A stretch of 57,459 nt of DNA, filler included, from Dirinaria sp. TL-2023a (GCA_051941275.1; 7 parts of 7 records of this genome joined end to end with filler, not necessarily neighbours in it), one strand, 5' to 3'. Numbered from the whole stretch's first letter, positions 3,909 to 49,358 are shown. The notes: generated from the sequence alone by a model not told the origin. Numbers and translations: made by a program.

Positions 3909-5346
3909 ATGCTTCTTAGCAGTGCTACAGTCTGGGGACACATAGAGCGAAGATGCGCCGCGGTCGTATCACGCGCATACAGTTTTCGGAGCTATCACCG
4001 GCTCTCCGCCTCGACTCCTGTTCTGTTTAGGCAGCGCTCGCTCAGCACCGGTGTTACACTTTCAGCAAAAAGACGTCGCGACTTCTTCTCCTCGAATGCA
4101 GCTTTACGGCAACGTCAAGATGAAGTAGGAGTCGCGGATTCAACCCCGCCGGAAGCGCAGCCTGTAAAGAGCCAAAAGCGGAAGAACAAGCGATCTTCGC
4201 TAGGAAAGTCATCGCTGCGAAGGGTGGCAGTCGAAGCACAAAGATCCAGAGATGGTAACGAGTTGAAGAAGTCAGAGACTGGAGAGTCGCAGAGCAATAC
4301 TAAGGTGAGGACTAGAGGATACTAGCTTCGAGGCTGGCAAAGCAAATAGCTAATAGCGGTCCTAGGCAATTACAGCTATCTGTGCAGCTGAACAATACGA
4401 CATAGCACGTGTATCTCATATTCTCCAGACTAAAGGCTATCGCCTAGACCCTTACGGAACTGGGCTTTATCCACAAGTTGTACACATCGAGCTACCTGTG
4501 GATATTCCAGCTGCCAACGCTGCTGCGGCGATCCCTGTGATCGGTGATGTCTTCGTATTCCCGTCCGGCACTGTTGTTGCGTGGGCAGTCTCTGAACACG
4601 TTCTTTCTGGCCTGGTCTCTGAAACCTTGCTGCCTGCAGCGGAAAATCCACATCCCGGCCACACTGAGGAAGAGGATCTCGAATATCTGATTGATCCAAA
4701 TAGGGAAAGTAGTAGCATCAAAGGTGACACAATTGTACTTGGTACAAAGCCAAAGTATCATGTCATTGAAGGAGGTCCACAGGGCACTCAAGTCAGCGTG
4801 CAAGACCGCGAACAGGGTCGCAATCTTGACACAGTACTCGCTAAAATCGCCTTCTCTTCTGGTTTAGCTCGGTCAACCAAACTTGCGGTCCTAGAAAGCC
4901 TGTTGAACAGTTACTTCCAAGCTACTAAGACTATCCCGCAGAAGCTATCTAAAGGAGGGCGCCTCCCATTCACCCGATCATTTATCCTGCAGAAAACTGG
5001 GCAGCTCCTGAACATACGAGCACAACTCAATCTCTACTCCGAGCTTGCGGATTCGTTGCCTGATATGTTCTGGGACAGCCGCCATGAACTTGGACTGGAA
5101 GGCTATTATGACCAGGTTGGTAGGACGCTTGATACGTCCATTCGGATTAAGACCTTGAATAGTAGGATGGATTATGCTCAAGAAATAGCCACCATTTTGC
5201 GGCAGCAACTGAGCGAGCAGCACGGAATACGGCTTGAATGGACTATTATCATCCTCATCATGGTCGAGGTAGGCTTTGAATTCTGGCATGTGGCAAGGGA
5301 AAACATGGAAGGAAGGCGGCATTTGAGTATGGAGCCTCCGGCATGA
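3909..5346 (+). CDS. MRX10: RMD1/DUF155-family protein, probably mitochondrial (Mrx10/RMND1-like)
   Basis: Exons 3909-4304 and 4366-5346 (intron GTGAGG..GCTAAT..CCTAG). Arg/Ser-rich presequence-like N-terminus. DUF155 motifs DVFVFPSGTVVAW, AFSSGLARSTKLAVLE, QLNLYSELADSLPDMFWD and RLEWTIIILIMVEV (C-terminal TM). Divergent from VPS41 across 220 bp. Orthology to MRX10 is inferred. Confidence 0.82.
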
Positions 5347-8156: not shown

Positions 8157-8256
8157 NNNNNNNNNNNNNNNNNNNNNNNNNNNNNNNNNNNNNNNNNNNN
8201 TTAATTAATTAANNNNNNNNNNNNNNNNNNNNNNNNNNNNNNNNNNNNNNNNNNNN
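8157..8256. other. Artificial contig-joining spacer (44 N + TTAATTAATTAA + 44 N)
   Basis: Identical 100-bp spacer occurs six times; TTAATTAATTAA places stops in all six frames. Confidence 0.98.
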
Positions 8257-16401: not shown

Positions 16402-16501
16402 NNNNNNNNNNNNNNNNNNNNNNNNNNNNNNNNNNNNNNNNNNNNTTAATTAATTAANNNNNNNNNNNNNNNNNNNNNNNNNNNNNNNNNNNNNNNNNNN
16501 N
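16402..16501. other. Artificial contig-joining spacer
   Basis: 44 N + TTAATTAATTAA + 44 N. Confidence 0.98.
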
Positions 16502-23658: not shown

Positions 23659-23700
<42 letters not shown>

Positions 23701-24645: not shown

Positions 24646-24745
24646 NNNNNNNNNNNNNNNNNNNNNNNNNNNNNNNNNNNNNNNNNNNNTTAATTAATTA
24701 ANNNNNNNNNNNNNNNNNNNNNNNNNNNNNNNNNNNNNNNNNNNN
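24646..24745. other. Artificial contig-joining spacer
   Basis: 44 N + TTAATTAATTAA + 44 N. Confidence 0.98.
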
Positions 24746-26715: not shown

Positions 26716-29701
26716 GATGGCTGTTGTAGCTTGGAAGATGCAGAAGATGGGGTAGGCTTTGTGGTGCAGAAGAAGAGTGGGAGGGGGACCTCAGCTGTGC
26801 AATTTAAGGGCTGCTTTGGTGTTGATGGCTCCGTGCTGTGAAGTTGCCAATCACGCAAATTCCAAGTATTGGCTGCGCCGGAACAATACAGCAGGCAGGC
26901 CAGCAGCACTGGCTATGCGGTGTGCTGAAGACCTGAAGACCAAGCGGAATAGAAGTAATTGCCGTGCAGTACCCGAGGAGCAGATTGCTGGAGCAAGTCG
27001 ACGAAGTAGACAGATCAGAAATGTTTGCCCTGCAGCAAGCTGAGGATCGATGATGAAGCAGCTCAGGAAGATCTGCTGTGCTGTAACCAGGCAAAGACAG
27101 AATCGATGACCCTCGAGCAAACAATCTCCAGTACGACCAGATCATTCAATGCTTCGTGGCGCCTTCCAATTGAGATTGCTTATGCGGCGATTCCTGGCCT
27201 TGTCTGTGCCAATACTGGGTGAAGTGGAACGATATCCTCCTTCAGGACCTCCCTTGTATTGCCAAGTAAATCACCGCTCGCACGCACCAGGACACTTCCC
27301 ATGCCTTGTCACACTTCCACATAGGATGGATCCCTTGCTGCTATGCCCTTCTCGGCGCCTACGACCTGAAATGTTCCGGCTCATACTGCGTTGTGCATGC
27401 CCAGGCCTTTTCCATGTCCATGCTTGAACATTTCTGTCTTTAGATGAATGGATCCAGAGCTACCTCCTTACGGACAATAGCAAGCTTCTTTCCCAAGCTG
27501 CCTTCTCTGGTTCTTCCATCTTTCGAGAGGTCCTTGCAGTTGGCATGTATCATTTTCTCGGCGCCTGTCCCAGGAAACACATTAAGTCTTTGCTTCCTTG
27601 ACTAAGAGGGGCAGCTGCACCATGCTCCAGCATAGCTGTATCATCAGAAGCTGTAGCAAGGTCCAGGACCAAAGGGTTACTTCATTGTCCGAAATTGTCC
27701 TCGCCCAATCATGTATAGATGGCGCTGGCTGCTCTTTGTACTGGCTCAGCTCAGCTCCGAATGGCCCGACTTCTTCGACTCCCGCAGCAACTATCTGTCC
27801 TTAATCAGGACCCAACTCTTGACTGCCTGACATCTTCCACTTTCACACTAGGTGACTTTCTCTTGACAAGCCTTGAAGTGCATGGTACCAGGCAGACCCA
27901 ACATCTCTCGGTCCAAATACCAAAATGCTCTATATACGAAAATGTCCAGTTCTAACGCCTTAACACGACTTTGGCTGAAATGATAAATGAAAACTTATTT
28001 AGATATACGAAGGCCAATTACTATGGCCATGCTTCTGACCCCTCCCCTGAAAGAGGCCTAGTATGAGGCCACACATGTAAAGAACTTATTTAAATATTCG
28101 GCAATCCATGACAGCATTGCATGCCATGCTCTGTAAGTATAGCGAGCTTGCCATCGCCATAGCCTTCAACCTCGGAGCTGGATGTGGTAGGAGTAGGATG
28201 CCACTCCTTTAGGAAAGCATGTAAGAGTAATAGATGGTAGCCCACGCTTGGGTTTGAGACACTAATAGAAGTCTGTAGCTCCTGCCATTCGAGACCTCGA
28301 GCGTGTACGAAGGGCACCACTGGCACCACCTATGGGCTCCTTATCCATGGCAAGCATGCCTGCACCCATGCAATGCTTGTGTGTCGAAGCAGAAGACCTC
28401 TAGATGTCTGAATTGGGTATTGAAGGACTTCGTAGGTCTCTTAACGCTGCCGCTGCAGTGCTTCCTCGTGGCAATAGGGACCGCTCTTGGAGGTTATGTC
28501 TCAATGGTAGGTTATGTTGGTGGTGACCGGATCTCTTTCTGGCGCCAGCAATCCTAAGGTACGGACATTTCTGCTCTTTGTTGTTGGGAAGTTCCTTGCT
28601 GCACTTCTTCTGAGTGCCTCTTTCTTTGGTTGACGCTTTCCTTTGGTTCCTGTCTTCTCTGGCTTTTGGTAAAAGAGGAGGTTGTATGGTGGGGTCAGCC
28701 ATCTTGTGCGTCGATCTCTGAGCACCACCTATGGCAGGCTCTGCTGCTGGCATCGTATCATCTGTTGATGTCGTATCAGCTGTTGGGATTGTAGCAGCTG
28801 TAAGACTTCTAGGTGGACGCGTCCTTGAGCTGATGGAGCCGCTTGTGCATTTGGTGAAAATTATCGTGAGAAGGCTCGAGGTTATTAAGAACTTGTACCT
28901 TCGAAGAGTCAAAAGATGGCTGTATCATCCTTTGGAAAAAGACCTCGAGGATCTGGAGGGCATGCTTGAGCTTCTGATGTATATCGGAGATGCTCGAGGT
29001 CACAGAAGCGGCGCCGAGGCTATATATGCTGCTTAGCTGTGATGAAGCTTCATGAAGGCCTGTGCAACACTGCTGGAGCAGTGTTGCGAGGCGAATAGTC
29101 GATGGCACTGTTGATGAGGGTTACTTACTCCATGTATCCATGAAGCAGCGAGTGTTGCAGCGCTGGCTAGCCAGTCGGCTCAATGAAGCTGCTGATGCCG
29201 CAGGTGACCCCTCCCAGTTTGGGCTGTAATCACATGTGTTGCGATGGGCCTTCCTATGTACGAGGAAGCTATCGAGACGTTGAGGCGTCGAGAGTGCAGA
29301 AGAGAATGAAGGGATATGAAGTCACTGGTTGGGGTTGCAAGTTAATGGAGGTGCAACCAGAGGAGCGGACCACCCAAATAGGCAAATTGTGAACAGCAAG
29401 CCATCACTCGGAACTAGTCCAATTCAACAAGGCGTTGAGCAGCCCAACAGCATCTGATCAAGTCCCAAGGACCCTCTGGACTCTGTTGAAGGCAGGTTCA
29501 CTACGATTCCCTAAGACTATGGAATATCACATTGCTCGTCCGTGGAAAGACACTATCGTTTGCACAGAGGAAATGTCATTGAGCGCTTGAGCGCTCTAGT
29601 GTTAAATACATTATAAAAACAAAAACAGAAAAAAAAAAAAAAAAGAAAAAGCTCAAACACCTCCGACCTCGACTCTGGGAACGCTCCAAATCATTATTCT
29701 T

Positions 29702-31206
29702 TCAGGATTGCTCCTGAAAGCGGCGCATCTTGGCCGGATCCCACCCCATATCCTCCCCACGGCGGTATCGTGCCTGTGGGTCGCTCTGTGCCTCTTGGAG
29801 GCTTTGGGGAGGGGTGCTACGAGGATTGAAGGGGCTGATTGATTCGTTGTAGCGGAGCGGATCAATGGGGCTTTCTGGCCCTATATATGTTTAAGCTATG
29901 ATACAAAGAAGCAAGTATGCTAGAGGGCATTCGCACCTCCAGCCCGGAAGCCAGCACCAGACCAGTATCTATTTGCCATCTCTTGAGATGGCGCCGGCTC
30001 TATAGAAGTATCAGCACGATGACCAGGCAATTTCGAATTTAGCTATCCAGTACCTTCGTTCCATGGCCCAATACGGGCCCGCGGCTGTCTATTTTCAAGG
30101 CCGCTGCTTATTGTCACCGGCTCTTGCAAAGGCGCCTGGTGCGTCGGTATCGCTGGAGGCGGTCGTCGGCCTCCAAGCCCGGATGGGCTGGTTTCAAGTG
30201 GCTCGGAGCCACGCAAGAGTTCTTGAAGGCGAGGCACTGATGGCCTCGGAGATGTCGATTCCGCTGCGAAGAATCCTAGCAGCGGTTCTTGCGAATGCGG
30301 TCTATATGGTTCTGGTGGAGGGATTGTTAAGTGGCTATGTGATGGGTCGTAAAGAGGGGCTGCGGATGATGGCGAGGAAATCTCAGGGACTGTTCCGGAT
30401 CCACTAGTGTTCATTGCAGGCACTGGCGTGGACCGATTCTGCATGCTTGCTCTGCCACGGACCTTGGAATCGTCTTTCTGTTCTCTGCCGCGGTCCTGGG
30501 AATCGTCTTCGCTCCAGGCGTGGCGTGTTCCAGGAGGCTGTGGTGCTATTGTGCCCGTGTGGTAATGTGCATACGAGCAATCTTCATCGGATCTCTGGCA
30601 GTGTCCGTTCGTGGCCCAAAAGTAGCAGGTCACGGATTTGTCTCGGGTCACGCCTGGAGCTGCAGCCATCCTGTGGAAAGATGTCATGTCAGTACATTCT
30701 GGAATCATGCAGAGTAGGAAAGCATAGACTAAGCTGCAAGAGCTGTTGCCCGGAGAAGGTGCCTTACCAGTCGGTCTCATAGTGCAGATAATGGCAATCA
30801 TCCTCGCTCTTGTTGCAGTGCCCCTTTGCCCAGAAATGGCATGTTATAGGTACCTTGGCGTGTTTAGAAGTAGTAACTGGAGCGGCCGCAACTTGGCCGG
30901 TATGTTCGTGTTCGTATATACACTGCTCCGCAGTCTTGGTACAGTTGCCTCTTACCCAGCTACGGCGGACGCGGAGTCAGTATATATAATATACTCGAGG
31001 GTGCAAAAGCAAGCTCGAGATGCAGCGAGGACTTACAAAGGACAAGTCAGAAGAGGTGCTCCCCTACGGCTGGGAGCAGGAGCCAGGGTTCCGGTGTGAG
31101 CATGAGTATAACGGCACTGCTCGTCTGTGTACCTGCACTGGCCACGAGCCCAGAAAGCACAAGTCAACTGACTCTTCGCCGGGATGAATGCGGGATCACG
31201 ATTCAT
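29702..31206 (-). CDS. Protein with four tandem CCCH zinc fingers and a Pro/Ser-rich disordered C-terminus (~406 aa), putative RNA-binding protein
   Basis: Five exons with consistent phases: 31206-31037, 30959-30768, 30670-30054, 29999-29937, 29880-29702 (1221 nt). Fingers: TCAFWARGQCRYTDEQCRYTH, TCPFWVRGNCTKTAEQCIYEH, TCHFWAKGHCNKSEDDCHYLH, TCYFWATNGHCQRSDEDCSYAH. Confidence 0.85.
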
Positions 31207-31253
31207 TCTGTTGATACTTATATCGTGCTGTGTCAAGAAGGTGATGGACGGTA

Positions 31254-31800
31254 GTGAAGAAGCGGCTACTTGAAGTGGCTACTTGAAGGAAGCGGTTGGA
31301 TAAAGAAGCGGTTACTTAAGAAGCGGATGGTTAAAGAAGCGGTCACTTGAAGACGCCGTTACTTAAAGAGGCCGTTACTTGGAGAAGTCGTTCCTTAAAG
31401 AAGCTGTATCTTGAAGAAGCCGTCCCTAAACAAGCAGTTGGTTGAAGAAGTCGTCCCTTAACAAGCAGTTTGTTGAAGAAGCGGCTGGTTAGAAGTAGCG
31501 GTTACTTAAGCGGGTACTTGAAGAAGCTGTTACTTGGAGAAGTCGTTCCTTAAAGAAGCTGTGATCTAAAGAAGCCGTCACTTAAGAAGCAGGTGGTTGA
31601 CGATGCGGTTGGTCAAAAGTAGCGGTTACTTAAGAAAGCGGTTACTTGATGAAGCCGTCACTTCAAACAGCTGTTACTTAAGGAAGCCGTTCCTTAAAGA
31701 AGCTGTAAATTGAAGAAGCCTTCACTCAAGAAGCAGTTGGTTGAAGAAGCGGCTGGTCAAAGAAGCTCTTTGGTGAGGAAGAACCGGCTGCTTGAGGAAA
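31254..31800. repeat. Degenerate 16-bp minisatellite (~34 units, consensus TTRAAGAAGCSGTTAC) with ~145-155-bp higher-order repeat
   Basis: Units such as ttaaagaagcggtcac, ttgaagacgccgttac, ttaaagaggccgttac, ttggagaagtcgttcc, ttaaagaagctgtatc, ttgaagaagccgtccc. An exact 34-bp duplicate lies at 31374-31407 and 31529-31562. Confidence 0.93.
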
Positions 31801-32202
31801 TGGTGGTGAGGGGGAGAAGAAGGAGAAGAAGGAGGAAAAGGAGGATGGGGTGAAGATCAACTAAATCCCAGGGAAACTTGGAAGCGGTTCTCCGGCAAAG
31901 ACTGATCACTTTGTCACCTTTCACTCAGCACAAGAATGATGAAAGAAAGCATCTGAGTGGTCCAAGACTCGACAGGCTCCACCGGTAGCTCTGCTTTCGT
32001 CAAGAAGGTGACAGGTTATCATGAGATTTCAAGGATACTCAAAAAGCCTGGGTCCACTTTGCACTCAGCTCGGAGGTCCTAGTGTCACCGTCTTTCAGAC
32101 CGCTAGAGCAGGCAGAACCTTCGAGCCGGTTCCCTACACCTACATGTATACTATGTAGTATTGGAGAGAACGTCACCATGTCACGCATTCAACGCCACTT
32201 TC

Positions 32203-32790
32203 ATGCCCGGGTGGATCCCTCGGCCGGTGAATTCTCTATCAATTTCTCGTCCTACCCCTTGTCATCCATTGATTTCCTGACCGCCTTCTTCAGATCCAGC
32301 AGCAGATCGTCGATCTGCTCTTTCTCCCCTCCTTCTATACCCGGATCAGTGACTGCTTCTCGTATCACCCCGCGAGCCAGCTCCATTATAAAGCTTTCCA
32401 CAGGCAAAGTACGTATATATACCATAAAGTACCTTGGACTTTCTTTTACCCTCGCCTCCAGACATCCCATTTCTTCCTTCCTCCAACCCTCAAAATGCTC
32501 TCATCCAACCCATTCAGACGCCACCCGTACGAGCAGCTCGAGGACGAAGACGAGGCAAATGGTACGAGTACTACCTCCCACTTCCCCCCCTCCAAAAAGC
32601 ACCCCATCTATCTTATGTACATGTAGAAAACAAAACCCCATCCTAAATAACTACTAACTCCCTCTTTCCCCCCTTTCTCCTAGCAGCGGCAGCAGCCAAT
32701 CCCGCTTCCAAGAAGCGTTCCGGTCCCAAACTCGCTCTCGAACGTCTAAAGAACAAGGTACATTCCATGTACCGCCGTGTGGCCCCGAAG
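32203..32790 (+). CDS. Probable small multi-exon gene, truncated by contig end; frame uncertain
   Basis: Chain of intron-like segments: GTGAAT 32227..CAG 32293; GTACGT 32409..CAG 32517; GTACGA..CCTAG; GTATGT 32791. Plausible peptides MPGWIPRP|IQQQIVDLLFLPSFYTRISDCFSYHPASQLHYKAFH and RHPYEQLEDEDEAN|AAAAANPASKKRSGPKLALERLKNKVHSMYRRVAPK join only via a GC donor or a 1-nt change near 32404-32408. Confidence 0.4.
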
Positions 32791-32851: not shown

Positions 32852-32951
32852 NNNNNNNNNNNNNNNNNNNNNNNNNNNNNNNNNNNNNNNNNNNNTTAAT
32901 TAATTAANNNNNNNNNNNNNNNNNNNNNNNNNNNNNNNNNNNNNNNNNNNN
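32852..32951. other. Artificial contig-joining spacer
   Basis: 44 N + TTAATTAATTAA + 44 N. Confidence 0.98.
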
Positions 32952-41056: not shown

Positions 41057-41156
41057 NNNNNNNNNNNNNNNNNNNNNNNNNNNNNNNNNNNNNNNNNNNN
41101 TTAATTAATTAANNNNNNNNNNNNNNNNNNNNNNNNNNNNNNNNNNNNNNNNNNNN
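41057..41156. other. Artificial contig-joining spacer
   Basis: 44 N + TTAATTAATTAA + 44 N. Confidence 0.98.
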
Positions 41157-49258: not shown

Positions 49259-49358
49259 NNNNNNNNNNNNNNNNNNNNNNNNNNNNNNNNNNNNNNNNNN
49301 NNTTAATTAATTAANNNNNNNNNNNNNNNNNNNNNNNNNNNNNNNNNNNNNNNNNNNN
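49259..49358. other. Artificial contig-joining spacer
   Basis: 44 N + TTAATTAATTAA + 44 N. Confidence 0.98.

Follow-up and report, generated by a model that had tools for sequence, protein, structure and literature searches.

Tandem repeats in the non-coding 5' flanks of fungal genes have been described as "tuning knobs" of expression, in yeast (Vinces et al., as reviewed in PMC3899988) and in Aspergillus (PMC3516485). The stretch of DNA analyzed here (the window, 57,459 nucleotides from Dirinaria sp. TL-2023a, GCA_051941275.1) contains an array of this type, in which a degenerate 16-bp unit is repeated head to tail on the minus strand in front of a gene predicted to encode four CCCH fingers. 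Like the fungal tuning knobs, it is a non-coding tandem repeat of a 5' flank, probably variable in copy number and with a possible quantitative effect on expression. Unlike them, it is unusually long (about 545 bp and 33 units), degenerate and organized in higher-order blocks, and it probably lies downstream of the transcription start. Dirinaria is a genus of lichen-forming ascomycetes in the family Caliciaceae. Our best explanation, which we hold with about even confidence, is that of a lineage-specific non-coding minisatellite that expanded between core promoter and start codon, lengthening a once short leader.

The array also resembles classical minisatellites or variable number tandem repeats (VNTRs) in its 16-bp unit, head-to-tail arrangement, variant units, block amplification, decayed edges and restriction to a single locus in 57 kb, although classical VNTRs are defined by hypervariability among individuals and the array is known here from one assembly. 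The adjacent gene recalls the MBNL proteins, whose fingers are reported to bind YGCY (PMC3880588, PMC5888374). As described for MBNL (PMC3880588, PMC5888374, PMC3103431), there are four CCCH fingers, here three of them with the spacing C-x7-C-x6-C-x3-H, and, as in the YGCY and CUG-repeat targets of MBNL, the array unit has GC in a pyrimidine-rich context, repeated and in RNA predicted to be single stranded. However, the protein is not an MBNL orthologue and belongs to a fungal module family (E values of 1e-4 to 1e-3 against MBNL), and YGCY is not enriched in the array. Among other CCCH proteins, autoregulation has been reported for NAB2 (PMC12581835) and MBL-1 (PMC10773944). A further system is the leader of Saccharomyces cerevisiae NRD1: Nrd1 is described as binding GUA[A/G] and Nab3 as binding UCUU, with NRD1 autoregulated by attenuation via multiple upstream sites (PMC3197677; PMC5737872). 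Like that leader (PMC3197677), the array carries many sense-strand copies of both 4-mers, 5' of a putative RNA-binding-protein gene; unlike it, the array belongs to another organism and pathway, the gene is neither NRD1 nor NAB3, and the motifs are a by-product of one repeat unit.

Tandem Repeats Finder (TRF) placed the 16-bp array at 31255-31752, with 31.7 copies, 65% matches, 6% indels and a score of 225; the best row unrelated to the array, in a run of 61 rows over the whole window, scored 70. Wrap-around alignment to the consensus gave 35 rows over 31799-31255 (33 whole, the first and last partial), and an anchored split gave 33 units of 13 to 19 nt plus one double unit of 28 nt. The minus-strand consensus, GCTTCTTYAAGTAACN, is a cyclic permutation of the unit proposed in an earlier reading of this DNA (here the sequence-only reading), whose estimate of about 34 degenerate units agrees with these counts. 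Over 33 units, columns 1-7 (GCTTCTT), 9-10 (AA) and 13-15 (AAC) are conserved, with C at column 2 in 33/33 and G at column 1 in 29/33, while columns 8, 11, 12 and 16 are variable, the last of them holding C in 12 units, G in 10, A in 6 and T in 4. The sequence-only reading had proposed that the uniqueness of the unit be checked. Allowing up to three mismatches, its unit matched the window, within which uniqueness was assessed, 13 times, with all 13 matches inside the array and none elsewhere (0.49 expected; 0 of 100 shuffles reached 13).

A coding repeat, also discounted in that reading, is ruled out by stops in all six frames (9 to 15 per frame, longest open stretch 52 codons). The same 52-codon frame also served as a stand-in to look for the repeat in other assemblies, and it found no look-alike. 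Between the end of the array (31255) and the ATG (31206-31204) lie 48 nt, close to the roughly 50 bp estimated before. Within the spacer are a decayed unit-like stretch and the hexamer TATAAG (31222-31217), and the base at position -3 of the ATG is A. The TATAAG is the only TATA-like hexamer near the CCCH start codon; it was rejected as a TATA box, being 10 nt from the ATG and too close to serve.

The array has a second level of organization. TRF reported higher-order periods of 155 bp at 31318-31600 (85% matches, score 427) and of 124 bp at 31394-31634 (80% matches, score 317), and nine unit types recur in one order across about three blocks of 9 to 10 units (blocks A, B and C in Table 1), with a partial block upstream of the three and decayed edges. 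A non-coding, head-to-tail array with many copies of a 16-bp unit, variant units and higher-order blocks has the features of a minisatellite. Differences between unit types were taken as old variation and differences within types as recent, that is, later than the block amplification. Old variation falls mostly in columns 8, 11-13 and 16, and columns 2-6, 9-10 and 15 are identical across all nine types. Recent changes affected 26 of 249 opportunities in conserved columns and 12 of 79 in variable columns (odds ratio 1.5, Fisher p 0.31), a comparison of 38 events with low power that excludes only strong constraint. Because these changes are evenly spread over core and free columns, they do not indicate that purifying selection has acted on the core after the last amplification.

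Two other origins were rejected. Transitions and transversions are balanced (15:15) among the recent changes, which is not the signature of repeat-induced point mutation, and a miniature inverted-repeat transposable element or other transposon remnant is disfavored by the finding of no inverted repeats in 30900-32400 together with 0/13 unit matches outside the array in the window. The CTTCTTC of the array core is also present in a 9-bp micro-repeat of the adjacent pyrimidine (CT) tract, and this common sequence suggests that the array may have arisen locally by slippage.

Just upstream of the array is the CT tract, already noticed in the sequence-only reading; counting both strands, only five tracts in the window reach 90% pyrimidine or more, and this is one of them. 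The distance between tract and ATG is 604 nt and would shrink to about 59 nt if the 545 bp of array were taken away. Of 18 long open reading frames (ORFs) of the window, surveyed crudely, nine had their best CT window at most 120 nt from the first ATG. In Aspergillus, a pyrimidine-rich sequence located between the TATA box and the start sites, immediately upstream of the latter, is reported to contribute to promoter activity (PMC9703631), and by analogy the tract is a probable marker of the core promoter and transcription start. Given this precedent and the place of the array, with an exceptionally strong tract on one side and the start codon on the other, a ~600-nt leader of repetitive sequence seems reasonable, and since the distance from tract to ATG without the array corresponds to the usual arrangement, the array is probably inside the mRNA leader. 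Judged from position only, the balance tips somewhat towards transcripts that start near 31800 and carry the repeats in a 5' leader of ~600 nt.

This putative leader is free of AUG. As had been pointed out before, the minus strand has no ATG from 31207 to 31949; the nearest upstream one is at 31952, and nowhere else in the window, whichever strand is read, does an ATG-free stretch match the resulting 746 nt (the runner-up measures 588 nt). The absence is not significant, with 2.0 ATG expected under a first-order Markov model and 9.3% of 2000 dinucleotide shuffles free of ATG, a proportion that rises to 25.2% for the part outside the array (31786-31951) alone. The ~545 bp of array are not independent evidence on this point because the unit itself has no ATG. 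Of all trinucleotides, ATG alone is missing from the leader; eight copies are present on the opposite strand (CAT on the sense strand).

The leader RNA (31805-31207) folds much like shuffled sequence (-124.7 kcal/mol versus -121.9 +/- 6.3, z of -0.44, 31 of 100 shuffles folding at least as well), and a search of Rfam gave three matches with E values of 0.27 to 0.91, far below the gathering scores. Motifs were counted on the sense strand of the 545-nt array and compared with the expectation from the contig background. GCTT occurs 23 times (3.0 expected), TCTT 21 times (3.6 expected; 2 on the opposite strand), GTA[AG] 10 times (2.7 expected; 3 on the opposite strand), YGCT[TG]Y 10 times (2.2 expected) and YAACNG 12 times (0.8 expected), while YGCY is not enriched (15 versus 11.8 expected). 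Since they follow from the unit consensus, the enrichments are not independent evidence. By motif, the candidate readers of the array would be MBNL-like fingers, Nrd1/Nab3-like factors and a Myb-type DNA factor; we take the AAC-N-G block of the unit to resemble the Myb-type YAACNG core.

Taken in order, the history that we propose would start with a 16-bp unit multiplied by slippage or unequal exchange, which would have given rise to the nine variant unit types, followed by a roughly threefold amplification of a block of 9 to 10 units (~144-155 bp). The expansion would have taken place between the strong pyrimidine tract and the start codon of the four-finger CCCH gene of this lichen-forming ascomycete. 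The array would now be found in the mRNA as a long (~600 nt), AUG-free and unstructured 5' leader whose units have been drifting since the block amplification without detectable sequence constraint. All the tests made agree with such an ordinary, drifting minisatellite. Because of this drift, the effect on the gene, if there is any, is more likely to be a generic one of length or spacing, i.e., that of a tuning knob, than that of a sequence-specific platform.

The spliced translation of the gene adjoining the array contains four CCCH fingers, three with the spacing C-x7-C-x6-C-x3-H (fingers 1 to 3) and one with C-x8-C-x6-C-x3-H. The donors of introns 1 and 2 are GTAAGT and GTAAGG, and their branch sites are CTGAC and ACTGAC, respectively. 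When six homologues were compared with the contig by tblastn, exons 1, 2 and 3 were matched (31269-30355), so that the four-finger gene model of the sequence-only reading is supported by homologues from lichen fungi. The same search found nothing with E<1 between 31270 and 32851, and a larger gene with an OB-like domain upstream of the array, which this leaves without tblastn support, was rejected. The public model (P0001, 285 aa) begins at the methionine of exon 3 (30669) and has one finger, without the other three; exon 3 matches, with 100% identity, the public protein named [quoted passage not shown] With homology supporting the two upstream exons, the public gene model looks 5' truncated.

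A phmmer search with exon 1 retrieved 460 proteins at E<=0.001, 100 at <=1e-10 and 4 at <=1e-30, most of them with 2 to 13 matched stretches per protein, the top matches being hypothetical proteins of the lichen fungi Letrouitia, Flavoplaca and Mycoblastus. The protein search with exon 3 recovered only the annotated protein of the locus itself (1 of 253 candidates), and that with exon 2 against longer proteins gave no match. In Pfam, all matches of single exons were below the curated cutoffs (the best was zf-CCCH_RBM22, with 32.3 bits versus 53 and an E value of 1e-7), and 8 of 12 homologues match a CCCH-type family at E<=0.001. Compared with solved RNA-binding fingers, a profile of the module gave E values of 4.9e-6 for Yth1, 6.8e-5 for MBNL2, 1e-4 for CPSF30, 6.7e-4 for MBNL1 and 8.8e-4 for RBM22. 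The predicted protein has four CCCH fingers of the RNA-binding type. About 55 nt past the stop codon of the gene there is a homopolymer, A36, at 29615-29650 (77% matches; T on the gene strand).

The homologues share the module LTC[YF]FW-x3-4-C-x-RSD-x-EC-x-YAH-x2-TG-x-[VI]A-x2-PP. Four of them, from Letrouitia, Flavoplaca and Mycoblastus (P0002-P0005), represent an uncharacterized family of lichen-forming fungi in which a conserved N-terminal domain of ~400 aa is followed by 4 to 8 CCCH modules with a "..TG.VA..PP" linker; the N-terminal domain gave a subthreshold match to the RPA OB fold (22.1 bits versus a cutoff of 27). Scanning metagenome contigs with the module alignment produced 143 pattern matches, from which two loci (L001 and L002) were confirmed, both coding for a protein of ~600 aa with a single C-terminal finger that is a distant paralogue and not an orthologue. 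No tandem-repeat rows were found at these two loci, which carry the distant paralogue. Their matches have the same coordinates (4001-4105 in both), identity (54%) and E value (9e-12), as two metagenome records with matching scan results for one locus. The ORF of L002, ~608 aa long, ends in a single finger of the module family.

The sequence-only reading had interpreted the array as a multivalent platform in the 5' untranslated region (UTR), in which about 33 GCUUCUU..AAC units would be bound by the CCCH protein or another RNA-binding protein, with feedback on translation or stability and copy number as a rheostat. Its non-coding array, its layout of tract, array and ATG and its RNA-binding-type fingers have stood, but no test favors the platform or the autoregulation, and we regard the model as improbable. 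It would be consistent with the profile matches to Yth1, MBNL2 and MBNL1, with the C-x7-C-x6-C-x3-H spacing that fingers 1 to 3 share with the aligned MBNL2 finger, with the near-invariant GC followed by U-rich sequence in each unit (seen also in the count of YGCU[U/G]Y), with an RNA that is not locked in structure and has no upstream AUG, and with the precedents of NAB2 and MBL-1. Nevertheless, YGCY is at background level, k-mers of any repeat unit are "enriched" by construction, the core was not spared by recent substitutions, the absence of AUG is not significant, and the two related loci have no tandem repeat, though the gene there is a distant paralogue. The more specific version, a transcribed leader of ~33 sites whose GCUUCUU..AAC would be bound by the gene's own MBNL/CPSF30-like fingers as a cis sponge or feedback sensor with copy number as the set-point, we rate slightly lower again. 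A role at the DNA level, as a multimerized transcription factor site or nucleosome-excluding spacer of a divergent promoter shared with the plus-strand gene at 32495, with the CCCH transcript starting within or after the array, is unlikely but deserves more credit. The array does lie within a 1289-bp divergent intergenic region, and the Myb-type YAACNG core occurs 12 times on one strand, well above expectation. Tandem repeats are also reported to be common in yeast promoters and able to tune expression via chromatin (PMC3899988). Yet the array leaves just 48 nt before the ATG, where the sole TATA-like hexamer is too close to be of use, the strong CT tract is upstream and not downstream of the array, AACNG is kept in only 14 of ~33 units, and the recent changes show no constraint on the core. 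Promoter repeats, moreover, seem rarely to affect expression in Aspergillus: in Aspergillus flavus/oryzae, where variation of promoter tandem repeats was tested against expression, only 4.3% of the relationships are reported as significant (PMC3516485), and by analogy the base rate of functional promoter repeats in filamentous fungi would be low. As for the bidirectional promoter with a small gene at 32203 that had been offered as an alternative, the ATG at that position opens ~25 codons and the gene is probably not there.

The abundance of UCUU (~21) and GUA[A/G] (10), both far above expectation and scarce on the opposite strand, could indicate instead a co-transcriptional attenuator or terminator that recruits Nrd1/Seb1-like factors and causes early termination or destabilization, for which the multiple upstream Nrd1/Nab3 sites of yeast NRD1 are the precedent. 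However, both 4-mers are inherent to one repeat unit, which makes their clustering trivial, and descriptions of the Nrd1-Nab3-Sen1 pathway proper come from budding yeast; we consider this highly improbable. Only marginally better is the prospect that the array is intronic (in a 5'-UTR intron or in an intron of a larger gene with upstream first exons) and absent from the mature mRNA. No stop interrupts the frame in the 22 codons that precede the ATG, a possible acceptor (..acacag) is found at ~31229, and the closest homologues do have a domain of ~400 aa ahead of the fingers. Against this, the tblastn comparison was blank upstream of the array, introns of at least 550 nt are long for filamentous ascomycetes, and five other homologues (P0013, P0073, P0092, P0097 and P0117) begin with a finger at most 10 residues from the N terminus. 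That the array or its copy number was produced by short-read metagenome assembly is the least credible of these possibilities. The contig does come from a metagenome-assembled genome and has just 8106 bases, but with degenerate units (65% matches) and blocks only 80-85% alike, most k-mers of the array are unique, and collapse or chimaera is therefore unlikely.

Several observations weigh against a drifting minisatellite. The contrast between zero ATG and eight CAT on the sense strand is the pattern expected from selection on a leader and could be a hint of it, although chance allows it at the frequency given above. The array is the sole minisatellite found by TRF within 57 kb, and the gene that it adjoins happens to have fingers resembling binders of short repeated RNA motifs. 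The invariance of columns 2-6, 9-10 and 15 among unit types could reflect an earlier constraint, and the neutrality test has little power to detect a weaker one at present. In addition, the transcription start, and hence the 5'-UTR status of the array, is deduced from its surroundings, and the copy number may be misassembled because the contig belongs to a metagenome-assembled genome. If the array is only a drifting minisatellite, it would be a routine case, of use mainly as a polymorphic marker and as a reason to treat with caution the public annotation, which lacks three fingers of this gene. Were it instead a sequence-specific platform bound by the CCCH protein encoded next to it, it would offer a rare example of an autoregulatory leader built from repeats and tunable by copy number, and a first functional handle on the multifinger CCCH family of lichen-forming fungi.

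Table 1. Coordinates of the array, its surroundings and other features of the window.
Feature	Position	Strand	Evidence or remarks
Degenerate 16-bp tandem array, 33-35 units	31255..31799	-	TRF, wrap-around parse, unit matches
Spacer between array and ATG, 48 nt	31207..31254	-	Read from sequence
Pyrimidine (CT) tract	31793..31860	-	40-nt windows >=90% C+T, peak 97.5%; TRF rows 31813-31843 and 31815-31845
Higher-order block A, units 5-13, ~144 bp	31576..31719	-	Unit-by-unit correspondence with B and C; TRF periods 155 and 124
Higher-order block B, units 14-23, ~155 bp, internal two-unit duplication	31421..31575	-	Unit correspondence, TRF
Higher-order block C, units 24-31, ~127 bp, partial	31294..31420	-	Unit correspondence, TRF
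CCCH gene, exon 1 (ATG at 31206; finger 1 and first Cys of finger 2)	31037..31206	-	ORF, GTAAGT donor at 31036, tblastn matches 31233-31039
CCCH gene, exon 2 (rest of finger 2 and finger 3)	30768..30959	-	Splice signals, tblastn matches 30973-30749
CCCH gene, exon 3 and downstream exons (finger 4, low-complexity tail)	29705..30670	-	Public protein P0001 begins at 30669
Divergent neighbor gene, cut by contig end	32495..32851	+	ORF, sequence reading; at least 2 introns by eye
Spacers between contigs	8157-8256, 16402-16501, 24646-24745, 32852-32951, 41057-41156, 49259-49358		Both sides not true neighbors

The window consists of seven contigs of ~8.1-8.2 kb each, joined by six N44-TTAATTAATTAA-N44 spacers (a six-frame stop linker), and the array is located in the contig at 24746-32851. 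On the other side of the intergenic region, the credible start of the divergent gene is at 32495 and not at 32203. As read from the sequence, this gene would have the usual layout, with TATATATA at 32414-32421 followed by a CT-rich leader and then the ATG. The minus strand of this region carries an ORF at 32252-32386, with 44 aa from an internal methionine. Near the end of the preceding contig, a perfect T35 homopolymer is present at 23659-23693.

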